From sequence record NC_028957.1: DNA of 64,000 nucleotides. One strand, written 5' to 3'. Position 1 is the first letter of the stretch, and every line of letters begins with the position of its first letter. The notes under the pieces were generated by a model, which saw nothing but the letters and a program-made list of their open reading frames with translations, was not told where the DNA came from and searched no databases. The translations under genes and the position numbers were made by a program. Below are positions 26,091 through 35,339 of the stretch, piece after piece. This DNA comes from Escherichia phage vB_EcoM_VR26.

Positions 26091-26549
26091 TCCGAAAATT
26101 TGAGTCAAAACCTTGTACATCGATTTACCCATTACGTATTGCCATTGACTCGGTTTAATCAGAGCAAATGCATCAAACTCTGGGACCAAACTACCATCCG
26201 GGAATGTATGATATGCGGAGCATTTACTATGTCTGAATTGCTCATGCTCGACCGGGACCGTGTACAAAAACAGGTGAAGGTTTTTGTTATCTGAATAACG
26301 GAACTCGCCTAGGTCTTTTAAGAATGCCGGGTCATACTGGGTAAAGCCTGTTTCTTCTTCGCATTCACGTATAGCCGCTTCAATCGGGGATTCACCGGCT
26401 TCAACATGACCCTTAGGGATATCCCATTTATGTGCAGGCATACCCGGTTTGCGAGAACCAGTCACGCGACCCATGAATAGCTCTTTATCTTCAGTCATGA
26501 AAATAATACCAGCAGATAATTCTTTCACCACGTTTTTCTTACTCATCAT
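26088..26549 (-). CDS. nudE: Nudix hydrolase NudE
   Basis: Nudix box GHVEAGESPIEAAIRECEEETG; start placed at internal MMSKK (track runs to 26675). Confidence 0.8.
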   Translation of the reverse strand: MMSKKNVVKELSAGIIFMTEDKELFMGRVTGSRKPGMPAHKWDIPKGHVEAGESPIEAAIRECEEETGFTQYDPAFLKDLGEFRYSDNKNLHLFLYTVPVEHEQFRHSKCSAYHTFPDGSLVPEFDAFALIKPSQWQYVMGKSMYKVLTQIFG

Positions 26550-26775
26550 CACGTTCCCACGATTTTTTAAAGATTTCAGCCATAATAATTTCAATACGTG
26601 TTTCTGTTGATGGCGATTCACTACTAGAAGTTTGAACTCTGTATTCAGAAATCGGGCGGAACAAGTCCAGGTCAATTTCTAAATCATCTTTGATTTCAAC
26701 TTCGGGCGTACCTTTATCATAGGAATACAGGTAAGAATCACATGACTCTGATTTAATATAAATTGCAATACTCAT
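26539..26775 (-). CDS. hypothetical acidic protein (78 aa)
   Basis: ORF track. Confidence 0.45.
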   Translation of the reverse strand: MSIAIYIKSESCDSYLYSYDKGTPEVEIKDDLEIDLDLFRPISEYRVQTSSSESPSTETRIEIIMAEIFKKSWERDDE

Positions 26776-27353
26776 TTACGGCATTCCTCAATAAAAGAGT
26801 TTAATGTATTTTTCTTTGTAACATCATCATATACCTTTTTAACTTTAGAAATACGAAAAGGTACTTCAATAACAGAGGTCCATAAAAATGATGCGATAAG
26901 TCCTGAGATAGCCGCAGACATAGCTGACGCGAATACAGAAATAGGCAGGTCATTATCTGTTGTCAGGAAAAAACCCAGGATTGGAAAAAACAGTATCCCC
27001 ATCCAAACATAGAACCTGGAGCACACCAACTTGTCATATTCATCGCTCCATGTACGAAAACCATATTTTTCACTATAACAAATCAATGGGTCAGGTGTTT
27101 GTTCTTTATGCGGTTCTGGTTGCCAACCTTTAACGATGTGCTTCATTTTATATTCCTCAATTAAAAGCTCTTTCATATGCCGGTTACAATGCGACCAATC
27201 AACGTTTTCCACCTTGATTCCTTCATCACCATCATCAAGGTTTGCCCAATATCTTTTGGTAATCATAAATTCATCTCTTGGAACTGGAATACCTGCACAT
27301 CCTTGTGGACCTTTCATATCACCCATGCAACCGGGTTCATACATCATTACCAT
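26772..27353 (-). CDS. hypothetical protein with C-terminal transmembrane region (193 aa)
   Basis: Cys-rich soluble N-terminus then FYVWMGILFFPILGFFL and AISGLIASFLW hydrophobic segments. Confidence 0.5.
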   Translation of the reverse strand: MVMMYEPGCMGDMKGPQGCAGIPVPRDEFMITKRYWANLDDGDEGIKVENVDWSHCNRHMKELLIEEYKMKHIVKGWQPEPHKEQTPDPLICYSEKYGFRTWSDEYDKLVCSRFYVWMGILFFPILGFFLTTDNDLPISVFASAMSAAISGLIASFLWTSVIEVPFRISKVKKVYDDVTKKNTLNSFIEECRK

Positions 27354-28033
27354 CCCTCCATAGGGAATTCTAGATATACTTGGGCATTAACGCGGATTTC
27401 ATTGGTAATATTTTTAACACGGTCAGTGTTACGAGATACACGACCAAACCAACGCCAGCCATTGCGCACTGTCTGGGAACCAGTATGCCAGGTATGACAA
27501 TTAAACTGCAGGAGTGTGCGGTCAGGAGCTTCCCATTGCTCTAATTCACCTGATTCAATTTTAGTCAGAACTTCTTTATGCCATTGGCGATAAATCAATT
27601 CACCTTCCGGGATTTCACTAAAGGTAGCTTCGCCTGTAGCAAAATGGGTAGGACACACATCAGCGTTAACAAGACCAAGAATGTGTTCAGACATATAGCG
27701 AGGATTGTCATAATCTGGTTGACCCGCAGTAATAAAATGTTGTCCAGTTGGAATGGGTGGACGCGGAACATCATCATGATGATAGCCAGGGATAGCTGGA
27801 TACCAACCCGGCATTAACATATGCACACGTGAATCAAACACAACATGTTGATTAGTCCAATCAATTGGGAGATTGGCAATAAAGCTACGAGTGATTGGGC
27901 CACCATTATCCCAAGCAAAACTCAAATCACAGTTAAAGAACATTGGTTCATTTTTGATTTGGTCATTTTGTACGTTATGTGCAAAACCACCTACTGCACG
28001 AGCTTGACTATTAAAAGTTTTAGGACCGTTCAT
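27347..28033 (-). CDS. hypothetical protein (228 aa); possible 2OG-Fe(II)-oxygenase/cupin-like
   Basis: HHDD ... about 95 aa ... HTWHTG ... RNGWRW could be an HxD...H...R metal triad; weak. Confidence 0.5.
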   Translation of the reverse strand: MNGPKTFNSQARAVGGFAHNVQNDQIKNEPMFFNCDLSFAWDNGGPITRSFIANLPIDWTNQHVVFDSRVHMLMPGWYPAIPGYHHDDVPRPPIPTGQHFITAGQPDYDNPRYMSEHILGLVNADVCPTHFATGEATFSEIPEGELIYRQWHKEVLTKIESGELEQWEAPDRTLLQFNCHTWHTGSQTVRNGWRWFGRVSRNTDRVKNITNEIRVNAQVYLEFPMEGW

Positions 28034-28060
28034 AATATTTTCCTCATTGATTGTGGGACC

Positions 28061-28090
28061 ATTATGTCATAGCCCCATTTGGTTGTACAC
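28061..28090 (-). promoter_or_regulatory. T4-type early promoter
   Basis: GTGTAC -18- CATAAT. Confidence 0.45.
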
Positions 28091-28092
28091 AC

Positions 28093-28743
28093 TTATTTTT
28101 GTCTATTATAATATTTCAATTCAGCGGCGCGACGTCTTTCCATTGCTTCGTCACGAGAATCACCATAGTAAAGTTGGATTTCTTTATGATTAACAGTAAT
28201 ATATGATATCCATTTACCTCTGTCTTTTCTAAACTTGACACCTGTAATTGGACCAGGTGAATCTTTTCGGGTATCCTGGTCAAATGACTGTATTGATGAT
28301 GAAGCCCATTCGCAAGTTTCTTTACTGTATAGCTTACATGAATTTATCCGATTAATGCTTGTACCTGCTGGACGAATACCCATATCTTCAACAAAATTCA
28401 AATAACCAGTTTTTCCCTTTGGTAGCCACCTATCACATATTTGTACACCAGCGCCACCATACTGCTTCCAACGATGATGGTTAGGATTTGTACACCTTTC
28501 AATCATGGCAGCATACGATGAATATGTAGGTTTGTCAGAAATAAATGAATAATGATATTTCTGACAGCCGCATGATTTGGTTTTACCTGATTTTATACGA
28601 GCGGCGGCTGTGACAAACTCTTTACCACAATGACAAATACAATTCCATTTAGTAGAAACTCCAGCGGTTTTATATGCTACCGAAACAAATTTGATTCCAT
28701 TAATAATTTTACCAGTCAAATCTTCTAATGGTCTTCCCATCAT
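28093..28743 (-). CDS. HNH homing endonuclease with zinc ribbon and C-terminal AP2-like DNA-binding domain
   Basis: WNCICHCGKEF...KSGKTKSCGC then ERCTNPNHHRWKQYGGAGVQICDRW core, then KFRKDRGKWISYITVNHKEIQLYYGDSRDEA AP2-like tail. Confidence 0.75.
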   Translation of the reverse strand: MMGRPLEDLTGKIINGIKFVSVAYKTAGVSTKWNCICHCGKEFVTAAARIKSGKTKSCGCQKYHYSFISDKPTYSSYAAMIERCTNPNHHRWKQYGGAGVQICDRWLPKGKTGYLNFVEDMGIRPAGTSINRINSCKLYSKETCEWASSSIQSFDQDTRKDSPGPITGVKFRKDRGKWISYITVNHKEIQLYYGDSRDEAMERRRAAELKYYNRQK

Positions 28744-34068: not shown

Positions 34069-34097
34069 ATTATACACTATCCCACCTGGAAGTAAAA
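34069..34097 (-). promoter_or_regulatory. T4-type early promoter
   Basis: GTTTTAC -17- TATAAT with inverted repeat gtgggata/tatcccat. Confidence 0.5.
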
Positions 34098-34109
34098 CAC
34101 TTTTCTCAA

Positions 34110-34535
34110 TTATTTTTGAGCTTTGCGGAAGTTGGAAGCATAAGACTGAACAACAGTCTTTTTGATATCATGGGTAGTAACCAGGACATCAATCAGAGCG
34201 CGGCGAGCGGCATTATCATTCATATCAATTTCTGCAAATGCCTGGAAGCAAATGTCACGGGCGTTACCAGATTTGGACTGGATTTTTTCTTCTTTAACTT
34301 CTTCAATTGGGAATTCAATCATTTCAGCTTGGATTAATTCAATGATGGATTCTTTTGACTGTTTGGTGTTTACCTTCAGTTCAGAATTAAGGGACTTGGC
34401 GATGGCAACAATCTGGGTTGAAGTCAGATGGATAAGTGCATCTTCACGAATGCAGATTTCACATACTTCGTCAGCAACCATTTTGTTAGTGATGCGGGTA
34501 ACAGAGAATGCAGAGGTCAGGGTCAGAAAGTTCAT
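34110..34535 (-). CDS. hypothetical protein, paralog B with shared C-terminal domain (141 aa)
   Basis: C-terminus NDNAARRALIDVLVTTHDIKKTVVQSYASNFRKAQK. Confidence 0.55.
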   Translation of the reverse strand: MNFLTLTSAFSVTRITNKMVADEVCEICIREDALIHLTSTQIVAIAKSLNSELKVNTKQSKESIIELIQAEMIEFPIEEVKEEKIQSKSGNARDICFQAFAEIDMNDNAARRALIDVLVTTHDIKKTVVQSYASNFRKAQK

Positions 34536-34585
34536 TTTATTTCTCCAAAGTTTTTGTGATTCAGTGTGTAACTCAGTATGGAATC

Positions 34586-34615
34586 ATTATGCACCCGGTC
34601 AATTCGGATGTACAC
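34586..34615 (-). promoter_or_regulatory. T4-type early promoter
   Basis: GTGTAC -18- CATAAT and conserved leader. Confidence 0.45.
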
Positions 34616-34651
34616 TACTTTTTGAAGAAAATTTCAAATTTATTCGGGGTA

Positions 34652-34681
34652 TAAAAAAGCCCCAACCTTTCGGGAGGGGCT
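34652..34681 (-). terminator. Rho-independent terminator
   Basis: Minus strand GCCCCTCCC-gaaa-GGTTGGGGC followed by TTTTTT. Confidence 0.55.
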
Positions 34682-35339
34682 ATACCTTGTCGGGGTTCCA
34701 CCTGCAAGGCAAGTGTTCAAAATAGGGTGCGCCGTGAATACGACCACGTTGAACAAAGCCGTCATCTACTTTCATAGCAAGCAGGATGAAGTCCATAAGA
34801 CCCTGATTGATTGGTATTTCAAATTTCGTAGATTTAATATCTAATTTTTTAACTATGGAACTTATGTCATGAAAGAAAAACCATTCACCATTTATATGGT
34901 CCTGATTATAAATGCTGTGCATATATTTTTCAAGTTCTACTGCATCCTGGGAATATCTAAATGATACTATTTTAAAACTTTTAAAAGGTGAAAATGTATT
35001 TGCTGTTATAGCTCTAACATCGGGTTCTATACTTCTTCCTATTTTATAATAATTAGGATTTGTAGTGTCTACCATTATGTATACAAAAGCTTGTCGATAA
35101 CTTTTTTCTATGTCAAATTCATCTTTAAATTTCAAAAGATTTAGGGCAGCAGTCCTACAAAATACTCTCCATATCGACGAGCGTTTAGCTTCGGTCATCG
35201 AAAAGAATTTTTTCTTATCTATGATTTTAAGAAAAGCCACCTTTTCAATTAGTTCTTGTGTTATTTCAAAATTACCATGGTATATTAATCCAGCTTTTAT
35301 AGCCAAATTAATTTGGTCCCAGTCTACATCACTTCTCAT
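34680..35339 (-). CDS. GIY-YIG-like (T5orf172-type) domain protein
   Basis: FVYIMVDTTNPNYYKIGRS ... GEWFFF fits the GIY-YIG/T5orf172 pattern; adjacent to the tRNA genes. Confidence 0.55.
   Translation of the reverse strand: MRSDVDWDQINLAIKAGLIYHGNFEITQELIEKVAFLKIIDKKKFFSMTEAKRSSIWRVFCRTAALNLLKFKDEFDIEKSYRQAFVYIMVDTTNPNYYKIGRSIEPDVRAITANTFSPFKSFKIVSFRYSQDAVELEKYMHSIYNQDHINGEWFFFHDISSIVKKLDIKSTKFEIPINQGLMDFILLAMKVDDGFVQRGRIHGAPYFEHLPCRWNPDKV

Follow-up and report, generated by a model that had tools for sequence, protein, structure and literature searches.

The nudE-to-tRNA interval of Escherichia phage vB_EcoM_VR26 is probably a copy of the variable early-gene region of T-even phages

The 64,000 nt stretch of Escherichia phage vB_EcoM_VR26 DNA (NC_028957.1) analysed in this work, hereafter the window, contains at positions 26539-35339 a block of 21 genes, all on the minus strand, whose limits are ORF boundaries: the end of g78 (26539) and the start of a T5orf172-type gene (35339). 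The right-hand boundary is given by the genes for tRNA-Arg(TCT) and tRNA-Met(CAT) (35359..35514; ARAGORN; Rfam 63.7 and 61.4 bits). Coordinates, strand and tRNA flank match those given in a preliminary description of the locus. All features below are on the minus strand unless stated. Each of the 21 genes can be assigned to an already existing PHROG family. Positions 26000-36000 are 97.9% identical to phage VR7 across 81% of their length, in which the two annotations agree gene for gene, and the phage belongs to Gaprivervirus.

At the left end lies g78 (26539..26775), an acidic 78 amino acid backbone protein (VR7 ORF132c, RB69 ORF130c; phrog_2900, E=3.5e-35), which is 68-100% identical in VR7, 212, EAWsc9, JS98 and RB69 and absent from T4. 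It is followed by the e.2 homolog (26772..27353; phrog_2203, E=1.7e-68; 31% identity to T4 e.2), with the C-terminus LNSFIEECRK. The e.3 homolog (31255..31608; phrog_2330, E=1.1e-45) ends in LETFIKECKS and is 22% identical to T4 e.3 and 31% to RB69 e.3, with matching position, and the e.4 homolog (31595..31954; phrog_2604, E=8.5e-44; 30% identity to T4 e.4) ends in EEFIKEVR. Hydropathy gives two hydrophobic segments for each of these three, which bears out their description as membrane proteins. The e.5 position is occupied by g184 (31929..32483; phrog_8788, E=1.9e-113), missing from VR7, which has only a C-terminal FI.ECREY.K in common with T4 e.5 (BLASTP, 15 residues, E=3e-4). The e.6 ortholog (32527..33120; phrog_1203) is equal in length to its counterparts, with amino acid identities of 75% to T4 e.6 and 74% to RB69. 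It had been taken for a PspA-like coiled-coil protein; searches of Pfam and of PDB sequences, with matches up to E=10 admitted, gave this identity no support.

The g228 gene (27347..28033; RB69 ORF132c family) encodes a 228 amino acid protein with a predicted Fe(II)/2-oxoglutarate (2OG) oxygenase fold. The top PDB fold matches of its AF2 model (pLDDT 88.7) are all PhyH-like 2OG oxygenases (probability 0.9-0.99, TM 0.3-0.4), and H85, D87, H183 and R194 (HxD...H...R) are invariant in 39 homologs, in agreement with the initial suggestion of a 2OG-oxygenase-like protein. The family counts 1287 homologs and is found in 471 phage records, with 79% identity to an Aeromonas phage protein. The g321 gene (28740..29705) encodes a 321 amino acid DUF7277+DUF7275 protein with a MenT/ANT-like nucleotidyltransferase fold and 1906 homologs, in which GS...DxD is invariant; this fold and motif substantiate the earlier nucleotidyltransferase-like label. 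Its nearest solved folds are the tRNA-modifying MenT toxins. Like g228 with respect to the PhyH-like oxygenases, g321 matches the MenT/AbiEii-type and ANT-type enzymes by fold and keeps their catalytic signature, GS...DxD...E. However, neither protein has sequence-level kinship to the respective enzymes, Pfam giving DUF7275/DUF7277 or nothing. In distinction to the MenT/ANT proteins, g321 has about 190 additional C-terminal helical residues (DUF7275), and no antitoxin-like partner is evident.

HNH216 (28093..28743; VR7 ORF135c) is a free-standing endonuclease-like gene showing presence/absence polymorphism. Amino acid identities of 99-100% are found only in VR7 and phage 212, while 836 of the 844 matching records are below 60% and come from very diverse phages. 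The gene had been termed an HNH-AP2 endonuclease, a designation which goes back solely to PHROG labels (phrog_374 'HNH endonuclease', E=1.8e-59); neither the Pfam HNH nor the AP2 model matches the protein at E<=10, its tail likewise gave no AP2 match, and a canonical HNH motif is not supported.

The T5orf172/MUG113 protein of the GIY-YIG clan (34680..35339) was correctly recognised as such, both Pfam models passing their cut-offs (E=4.3e-8 and 1.1e-5). It is 97% identical over 176 amino acids to VR7 ORF148c, with a different C-terminal tail. The gene lies 19 nt downstream of tRNA-Arg and is patchy among relatives, with at least 60% identity in 17 records and remoter homologs among the clustered tRNA genes of T5-like phages. 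In these respects it resembles SegB of T4 and other tRNA-side free-standing homing endonucleases (PMC2330249; PMC13096335). The VR26 protein is nevertheless a putative nuclease of the T5orf172/MUG113 family, as distinct from the GIY-YIG/NUMOD family of SegB, and pairwise comparison with T4 SegB gave no similarity.

Five tandem paralogs (29990..31258; phrog_899, phrog_4882) encode small acidic proteins of 77, 75, 65, 93 and 96 amino acids, separated by 9 nt spacers. As already proposed, they form one family: the alignments show a common G-x-W-x-S-S-x-x-C end in which W, SS and the C-terminal Cys are invariant in all five. At 50% identity the family falls into 67 clusters, 65 of them at 71-119 amino acids, and is present in 361 phage records, those among the matches listed being T4-like or related large myoviruses; copy number varies between relatives. 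The paralog pair is equally real, the basic protein p147 (33583..34026; phrog_18416) and p141 (34110..34535; phrog_9997, E=1.5e-71) being 42% identical over the C-terminal 73 amino acids (E=2e-17). VR7 keeps just the first 62 codons of p147, annotated separately as ORF145c directly upstream of a truncated e.4. Two further genes are g55 (29719..29886; phrog_20278, E=2.9e-43), a small basic protein also found in VR7, 212, EAWsc9 and JS98, and g101 (33197..33502; phrog_7474), a single-gene cassette with its own predicted promoter, present in 212 and EAWsc9 and not in VR7, JS98, RB69 or T4.

The T-even early-promoter pattern has 21 matches in the window, versus 7.05 +/- 2.4 in shuffles, and 19 of these are on the minus strand; a generic sigma-70 scan shows no enrichment (53 matches versus 43.9 +/- 7.6). 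Six matches are in the region, all intergenic and co-oriented with the genes, and fit the T4/PST consensus TTTACW-N17-TAYWAT (PMC4122927). They are predicted to act as early promoters and define about seven units of 1-11 genes, so that the claim of repeated promoters bounding each cassette was overstated. Upstream of g228, TGTACA-N17-CATAAT (28061..28089) has a PeSL-like (PeSL, promoter-early stem-loop) hairpin enclosing the -10 box (-13.1 kcal, z=-2.4). Upstream of e.6, the element at 33163..33191 has a stem-loop around the -10 box (-13.4 kcal, z=-2.3). The PeSL-like element at 33542..33576 combines a G5/C5 stem-loop overlapping the -35 box (-17.0 kcal, z=-3.9), a -10 CATAAT and a conserved 5'UTR (repeat D9), and in the PeSL-like promoter upstream of p147 (34069..34096) a GGGATA/TATCCC stem-loop encloses TATAAT (-16.1 kcal, z=-3.7). 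These four hairpins over -10 or -35 boxes fit the PeSL subclasses described in PMC2839356. Fold z-scores gave no significant hairpin at the remaining two of the six elements, TGTACA-N17-TATCAT upstream of g55/g321/HNH216 (29915..29943) and the one upstream of p141 (34586..34614), which has the D9 5'UTR repeat in common with 33542..33576. The terminator-like scan detected a GC-rich hairpin, AGGGGGCAAAGCCCCCT, between e.6 and g184 (32504..32520, no strand assigned), and an intrinsic-terminator-like hairpin with a T-run follows the T5orf172 gene (34660..34675).

Synteny was compared with VR7, 212, EAWsc9, JS98, RB69 and T4. The order nudE - g78 - e.2 - g228 - g321 - tandem family - e.3 - e.4 - e.6 is common to VR7, JS98 and RB69, and T4 carries e.2, e.3, e.4 and e.6 on the same strand in unchanged order. 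The T4 e-to-tRNA region also shares the flanks, denV/IP genes - e - nudE on the left and tRNAs - trna.3 - trna.4 - IP genes on the right. The first description, an accessory island of genes lacking a recognised T4 core function, is not supported. The preliminary description had itself held that its reading would fall if the gene set were conserved in the same order across T4-like phages with functions assigned; half of this is the case, because the order is conserved and the functions are without assignment. One difference from T4 is an extra 4.4 kb block between e.2 and e.3, made up of g228, HNH216, g321, g55 and the tandem family; apart from HNH216 it is also present in JS98 and RB69, though RB69 lacks g55 as well. 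Furthermore, VR26 has no e.7 or e.8, has g184 in place of e.5, and has two tRNAs versus eight in T4. Compared with VR7, it retains g184, e.6, g101 and full p147, lacks ORF146c and has tRNA-Arg. Since e.6, g228 and g321 belong to the more strongly conserved of the family's accessory genes, "hyperplastic" fits only part of the interval.

The region is more plastic than the core genes. Among 50,697 phage records the best coverage of 26000-36000 is 85% and only five reach at least 80%, each in 5-7 pieces, versus 32 records at this level for a 10 kb baseplate control, of which the best-matching are one piece at 99% coverage. It is this comparative evidence that sustains the notion of a hyperplastic, horizontally exchanged region; composition, which had also been invoked, is native, the GC and tetranucleotide z-scores all lying within +/-1.6 of the window mean. 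Where VR26 departs from VR7, 212 and EAWsc9, the breakpoints coincide with the edges of genes or motifs. HNH216 is a precise 649 bp insertion relative to EAWsc9, with the stop codon of g321 on one side and the promoter of g228 on the other. In phage 212 t65 is missing, with the crossover junction inside the 43 nt D4 junction repeat, and in VR7 31923-33836 is missing, with AAATTTT microhomology at the junction. An additional VR7 gene, ORF146c, has a copy of the TTTATTTGGTAACTCAGTATGG promoter/5'UTR repeat on either side, where the GGGATA/TATCCC motif is thus duplicated, like the RB49 ORF192 example of PeSL shuffling (Arbiol et al. 2010, PMC2839356; Comeau et al. 2014, PMC4122927). The repeated hairpin-bearing early promoters directly upstream of variable ORFs are a further likeness. 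However, the hairpin is convincing in only four of the six VR26 elements, conservation extends furthest over the transcribed 5'UTR 3' of the -10 box and not over the AT-rich upstream part, and other breakpoints use a coding-junction repeat, microhomology or endonuclease-gene insertion, as far as sequence tells.

Import of the region as one recent block from another phage or the host would account for the nearest non-T4-like homologs of the endonuclease-type genes lying in very different phages, and for the exact arrangement occurring in none of the phage records. Yet the compositional profiles are indistinguishable from the remaining window, the region has neither an integrase nor an att-like boundary, and the part that behaves like imported DNA comes to only some 1.3 kb (HNH216 and T5orf172); with a backbone order shared by RB69, JS98 and partly T4, synteny largely refutes such an island, and we consider it extremely improbable. 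Hardly more credible is that the variability is an artefact of cross-genus comparison, the region itself being no less stable than other parts of the genome. Conservation does extend over much of the backbone, the left 6.9 kb being colinear with VR7 at 97.9%, but even within the genus (VR7, 212, EAWsc9; 88-98% DNA identity) no fewer than seven indels or replacements occur in 9 kb, and the baseplate control remains unbroken. A coherent functional module, for instance a tRNA- or translation-directed counter-defence by g228, g321, the phage tRNAs and the GIY-YIG-clan gene jointly, is somewhat less remote but still unlikely. In its favour, g228 and g321 are neighbours throughout Tevenvirinae, g321 has the MenT resemblance noted above, and amplification of the tRNA region by SegB, a GIY-YIG endonuclease, is an anti-defence route in T6 (PMC13096335).

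By far the best reading, to which we give a probability of about 0.85, is that this is the T4-like variable early-gene region between lysozyme/nudE and the tRNA genes, the VR26 version of the hyperplastic 'e/nudE-to-tRNA' region of T-even phages, shuffled in a PeSL-like manner, and so of a known kind. Its genes, presumed non-essential and early, would be organised in about seven units, transcribed leftward from six or more early promoters of sigma-70 type, and may serve host takeover or anti-defence. The backbone of g78, e.2, e.3, e.4, e.6, g228, g321 and the tandem family would be vertically inherited in Tevenvirinae. Judging from the end-products, single-gene cassettes may be gained or lost by homologous recombination between repeated promoter/5'UTR/stem-loop motifs, tandem paralogs by unequal crossover at their conserved 3'-end/RBS junction, and free-standing endonuclease-type genes may insert (HNH216, and T5orf172 beside the tRNAs), microhomology deletions being a probable fourth reshuffling process. 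The region is real and visibly reshuffled, and it is an ordinary instance of a phenomenon already described.

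The ORF listing, the tRNA scan and the similarity searches identify the window as DNA of a T4-like myovirus, and the region 26539-35339 on the minus strand is the already described hyperplastic region (HPR) of T-even phages between lysozyme e and the tRNA genes, with promoter cassettes resembling promoter-early stem-loops (PeSLs) and free-standing endonuclease genes. It is bordered on the left by endonuclease V (denV), lysozyme e and NudE (25101-26549) and on the right by tRNA-Arg and tRNA-Met (35359-35514). When 26000-36000 was compared by megablast with 50,697 phage records, VR7 (Gaprivervirus) aligned over 81% of the query at 97.9% identity, and phage 212, the TH-series phages and SP18 showed 90-94% and Dhakavirus (JS98) about 82%. 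VR7, JS98 and RB69 already carry a gene-for-gene annotation of the region, whose novelty is low.

Both edges, 26539 and 35339, are true gene boundaries and enclose 21 minus-strand genes, which within transcription units overlap or are separated by spacers of at most 13 nt. Start codons were refined by PHROG and VR7 alignments, giving e.3 (31255-31608), e.4 (31595-31954), g184 (31929-32483) and p147 (33583-34026), all on the minus strand (g-numbers denote genes by amino acid length). All 21 genes match an existing PHROG family, mostly with E<1e-35, and 18 of these families are labelled "unknown function"; the other labels are membrane protein for e.2, HNH endonuclease for the endonuclease-like gene HNH216 and weaker nuclease-labelled matches for T5orf172, the GIY-YIG-clan gene next to tRNA-Arg. 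Pfam, run on all island proteins, matched only the DUF7275/7277 and T5orf172/MUG113 genes, with NUDIX on nudE outside the island, and NCBIfam on ten island proteins gave a single sub-threshold match. PDB sequence searches with g228, g321, HNH216, the HNH216 tail, e.6 (single sequence and profile) and a profile of the tandem small-protein family returned nothing meaningful. The gene inventory of the preliminary description was largely right, including its three membrane proteins and its paralog pair (p147 and p141). Rfam (E<=1) over 24000-38500 found the two tRNAs only and no counterpart of T4 rnaC/rnaD. The CAT-anticodon tRNA at 35440-35514 is a tRNA-Met according to ARAGORN and VR7 and a lysidine-type tRNA-Ile2 in the EAWsc9 annotation.

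For comparison, the annotated interval from e to the tRNAs was taken from VR7, phage 212, EAWsc9, JS98, RB69 and T4, and every window protein was searched against these by tblastn. The flanks are fixed in all six genomes: the region runs between the denV, e and nudE genes at one end and the tRNA, trna.3 and trna.4 genes at the other. The order nudE - g78 - e.2 - g228 - g321 - (g55) - tandem family - e.3 - e.4 - e.6 is common to Gaprivervirus, Dhakavirus and Mosigvirus, and in T4 e.2, e.3, e.4 and e.6 are likewise ordered, at 31, 22, 30 and 75% amino acid identity, respectively. The 4.4-kb block between e.2 and e.3 is also present in JS98 and RB69, minus HNH216 and in RB69 also without g55. Modularity and composition had been taken to indicate a horizontally exchanged region, and a horizontally acquired genomic island was considered here. 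It is rejected, as composition is not deviant and the backbone is present in all relatives: GC of the overlapping 2-kb windows of the island ranges from 0.370 to 0.410 (0.396 +/- 0.017 for the whole window), the tetranucleotide distances of these segments lie at most 1.3 sd from the mean, and all composition z-scores fall within +/-1.6, so that the compositional argument fails. On gene order and composition the region is to be read as the version of the classical nudE-e.8 interval found in this lineage, with no foreign insertion. The label "hyperplastic" remains appropriate, on comparative rather than compositional grounds.

Plasticity is evident from the similarity searches themselves. Only five records cover at least 80% of 26000-36000 by megablast, each in five to seven pieces, whereas for the 10-kb baseplate control (45000-55000) 32 records cover at least 80% and the best-matching ones do so to 99% in one piece. 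Pairwise blastn and inspection of the breakpoints resolved at least seven indel or replacement events across the island within the genus. One of them is HNH216 (28093-28743), whose 649 bp are inserted precisely between the stop codon of g321 and the promoter of g228; among the compared genomes it is found in VR7, phage 212 and the window only, unrelated small ORFs being located there in RB69 and JS98. The additional VR7 gene ORF146c has on either side a copy of a recurrent promoter/5'UTR motif (...TTTATTTGGTAACTCAGTATGG...), which is the direct repeat D9 and occurs in the window upstream of g101, p147 and p141; ORF146c and g101 were considered as alleles and show no similarity. Phage 212 has an additional 132-aa ORF at the e.6 promoter and is without t65, one of the tandem paralogs, with the junction inside the 43-nt D4 repeat, which codes for ...WVSSSxxC, the stop codon and the next ribosome-binding site. 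Phage 212 and EAWsc9 have other sequence in place of the segment T5orf172 to g139. VR7 is without 31923-33836, which takes in the 5' end of e.4, g184, e.6, g101 and the greater part of p147; the junction shows a 7-nt microhomology (AAATTTT).

Comparison of VR7 region 7081-7635 with 31595-34073 shows that this 1.9-kb deletion drops the first 11 codons of e.4 and fuses the rest of the gene to the first 62 codons of p147. The genes annotated in VR7 as "e.4" (267 bp) and "ORF145c" are, from this alignment, remnants of the deletion. Since g184, e.6, g101, HNH216, T5orf172 and t65 are each naturally missing from viable relatives, their natural absence suggests that these genes are dispensable. To the right of the tRNAs lies g139 (35522-35941), a 139-aa acidic ORF (phrog_25544) with a homolog only in VR7 out of the six comparison genomes; the variable zone therefore extends beyond the right-hand boundary set in the preliminary description. 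The closest relative changes by region: the left part of the island is nearest to VR7 (97.9%), 31923-33836 is nearest to phage 212 and EAWsc9, and the baseplate block 45000-55000 is 98.9% identical to phage TH15, with no comparable VR7 match among the matches listed. Judged by these similarities the genome is a mosaic produced by recombination within the genus. Both flanks also carry arrays of small internal-head-protein genes (24422-25052 and 36679-37865; ip10, ip6 and internal head proteins in the VR7 annotation), all opening with the capsid-targeting sequence MKTYQEF(I/M)(T/N)ES, and this shared start accounts for the strongest direct DNA repeats of the area, D1 and D2.

Generic scans gave no enrichment over shuffled sequences, either for sigma-70 promoters in the window (53 versus 43.9 +/- 7.6) or for terminators. 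The T-even early-promoter pattern T[GTA]TAC[ATG]-N16-18-[TC]A[TG][ATC]AT gave 21 matches in the window versus 7.05 +/- 2.4 in shuffles, a three-fold excess, and 19 of the 21 are on the minus strand. Six predicted promoters fall in the island (28089, 29943, 33191, 33570, 34096 and 34614), all intergenic and co-oriented with the genes, and split it into about seven units. The statement that each cassette is bounded by repeated early-promoter elements was overstated, since the largest unit, from e.6 to t77, the first of the tandem paralogs, has ten genes. A stable hairpin is found at four of the six elements (z -2.3 to -3.9); it encloses the -35 box in the case of g101 and the -10 box in the other three. 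At the remaining two z is +0.3 and -0.4. A composite architecture of promoter and stem-loop is known as PeSL, and the T4/PST early-promoter consensus is TTTACW-N17-TAYWAT (PMC2839356, PMC4122927). The predicted island promoters resemble PeSLs in fitting this consensus and in flanking ORFs that vary between close relatives, such as VR7 ORF146c and the 132-aa ORF of phage 212, with junctions that fall in the motif; the four with a hairpin have the composite architecture. They differ in that the HNH216 insertion, the VR7 deletion and the loss of t65 use no PeSL motif. On the plus strand, 28084-28112 contains a promoter-like TGTACA-N17-TATAAT that reads into HNH216 in antisense. Its palindromic TGTACA is also part of the minus-strand g228 promoter, and the match is probably fortuitous.

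The endonuclease-type genes were described as an HNH-AP2 endonuclease and a T5orf172-type GIY-YIG protein. For HNH216 the HNH designation comes from PHROG names only. The protein matches nine PHROGs carrying the label "HNH endonuclease" or "restriction endonuclease", the best at E=1.8e-59, and matches neither a Pfam HNH model at E<=10 nor a PDB sequence. The AP2 part was not supported: Pfam yielded no AP2 model at E<=10, the 56-aa tail retrieved no AP2 chain from the PDB, and BLASTP gave no alignment to a plant ERF1 AP2 sequence. Records with HNH216 homologs comprise three at 99% identity or more, five at 60-80% and 836 below 60%, the last scattered over Staphylococcus, Pseudomonas, Bacillus and other phages, a distribution that fits a mobile gene. 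T5orf172 (34680-35339) bears out its assignment, exceeding the gathering score for both Pfam MUG113 (34.1 bits, cut-off 22.3) and T5orf172 (26.3 bits, cut-off 20). Over 176 aa it shares 97% identity with VR7 ORF148c, after which comes a differing 43-aa tail. About 174 bp present in VR7 directly 3' of the T5orf172 core are missing from the window (34680-34806), so that the ORF runs into formerly intergenic DNA and acquires the unrelated tail; the gene may be decaying. Distant homologs are located inside tRNA clusters of T5-like phages. T4 SegB is likewise found beside a tRNA (PMC2330249; PMC13096335), but T5orf172 has no sequence similarity to it and was rejected as a SegB homolog.

Two of the conserved genes are predicted to be enzymes. 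The first, g228 (27347-28033, minus strand), has 1287 homologs, of which the 120 listed are all at least 67% identical and include proteins associated with Citrobacter, Serratia, Aeromonas, Erwinia and Klebsiella. Its AF2 model (pLDDT 88.7) has a predicted double-stranded beta-helix fold, and nearly all of the 50 Foldseek matches listed from the PDB are Fe(II)/2OG or related non-heme oxygenases, including ColD, proline hydroxylase H11, GriE and EctD, with a DUF4867 structure at rank 2; probabilities are 0.9-0.99 with E of about 2e-3 and TM-scores of only 0.3-0.4. Across 39 homologs H85-x-D87, H183 and R194 do not vary. These residues sit on or follow the strands where the topology would place them, and would correspond to the HxD/E...H iron triad and the basic residue for the 2OG C5 carboxylate. 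The possible 2OG-oxygenase-like protein of the preliminary description is supported by the predicted fold and these invariant residues. The second, g321 (28740-29705, minus strand), has a predicted Pol-beta-type nucleotidyltransferase fold, MenT/ANT-like. Its G6-S7, D25-x-D27 and E69, invariant in 44 homologs and positioned on strand 1/helix 1, strand 2 and the strand 64-73, match hG[GS]...[DE]x[DE] plus a third carboxylate. With their predicted 2OG oxygenase fold and MenT-like nucleotidyltransferase fold, respectively, g228 and g321 are conserved and probably active enzymes. The genes adjoin in Tevenvirinae; as more distant phages have them unlinked, an obligately linked pair was rejected. 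A literature search on the function of DUF7275 found nothing.

The tandem family consists of five small paralogs (t77, t75, t65, t93 and t96; 29990-31258, minus strand; phrog_899/4882) sharing an N-terminal helix (A-E-x-I-A-D), a Y-G-x-G-G-x-Y-Y-P loop and an invariant C-terminal G-x-W-x-S-S-x-x-C, whose cysteine is free and the only one in t93. An exhaustive profile search gave 67 clusters at 50% identity, 65 of them of 71-119 aa and the other two very long proteins in which the helical part alone was matched. There is no Pfam family and no PDB relative. By tblastn the family occurs in 361 phage records, T4-like or related large myoviruses among the matches listed. EAWsc9 is without t75 and JS98 and phage 212 have extra copies, and these changes in copy number, read from the aligned genomes, show ongoing turnover. 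In t77 (29990-30223) the terminal motif is present twice, as an internal DWLNSSC and a C-terminal IWYPSSC, suggesting that the gene was duplicated internally or arose by fusing two units. It seems to us improbable that the family represents fast-diversifying counter-defence or host-takeover proteins needing the invariant G-x-W-x-S-S-x-x-Cys-COOH, in an array that would expand and contract accordion-like under host defences via unequal crossover at the 43-nt junction repeat.

The protein described as a PspA-like coiled coil (32527-33120) is the e.6 ortholog, as gene order is shared with T4 and both proteins have 197 aa with 75% amino acid identity. The PspA relationship was not borne out, with no PspA/IM30 match in Pfam at E<=10 or among PDB sequences (single sequence or 5-ortholog profile), and a literature search on e.6 function found nothing. 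A C-terminal motif [LI]-x-x-F-[IV]-x-E-[CV]-[RK] ends e.2 (26772-27353; LNSFIEECRK), e.3 (LETFIKECKS), e.4 (EEFIKEVR) and g184 (LNRFITECREY), and T4 e.3, e.4 and e.5 and RB69 e.2-e.5 terminate in the same motif; it is the sole similarity between g184, at the e.5 position, and T4 e.5. We know of no earlier description of it. The shared F-[IV]-x-E-C-[RK] peptide of e.2, e.3, e.4 and e.5/g184 could be a docking or processing signal joining the four proteins in a membrane complex.

Homologs of the tandem family, e.2, e.4, g78 and g184 carry automated names in the EAWsc9 GenBank record ("malate synthase", "transposase", "Ig-like", "holin", "VirB3", "antitoxin", "ubiquitinyl hydrolase") which Pfam, NCBIfam and PHROGs do not support. 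These names should not be propagated, and the "PspA-like" gene should be annotated as e.6.

The region as such adds little, being one more e-to-tRNA HPR of known architecture and shuffling mechanism in a phage near-identical to a sequenced one. Its value is in annotation guidance, and the leftover interest lies in the conserved, uncharacterised g228, g321, e.6, tandem family and e.2-e.5 C-terminal motif. Hundreds of T4-like phages carry g228 and g321, and the e.2-e.5 motif and the tandem family are cheap, testable leads for anti-defence gene screens in T-even phages.
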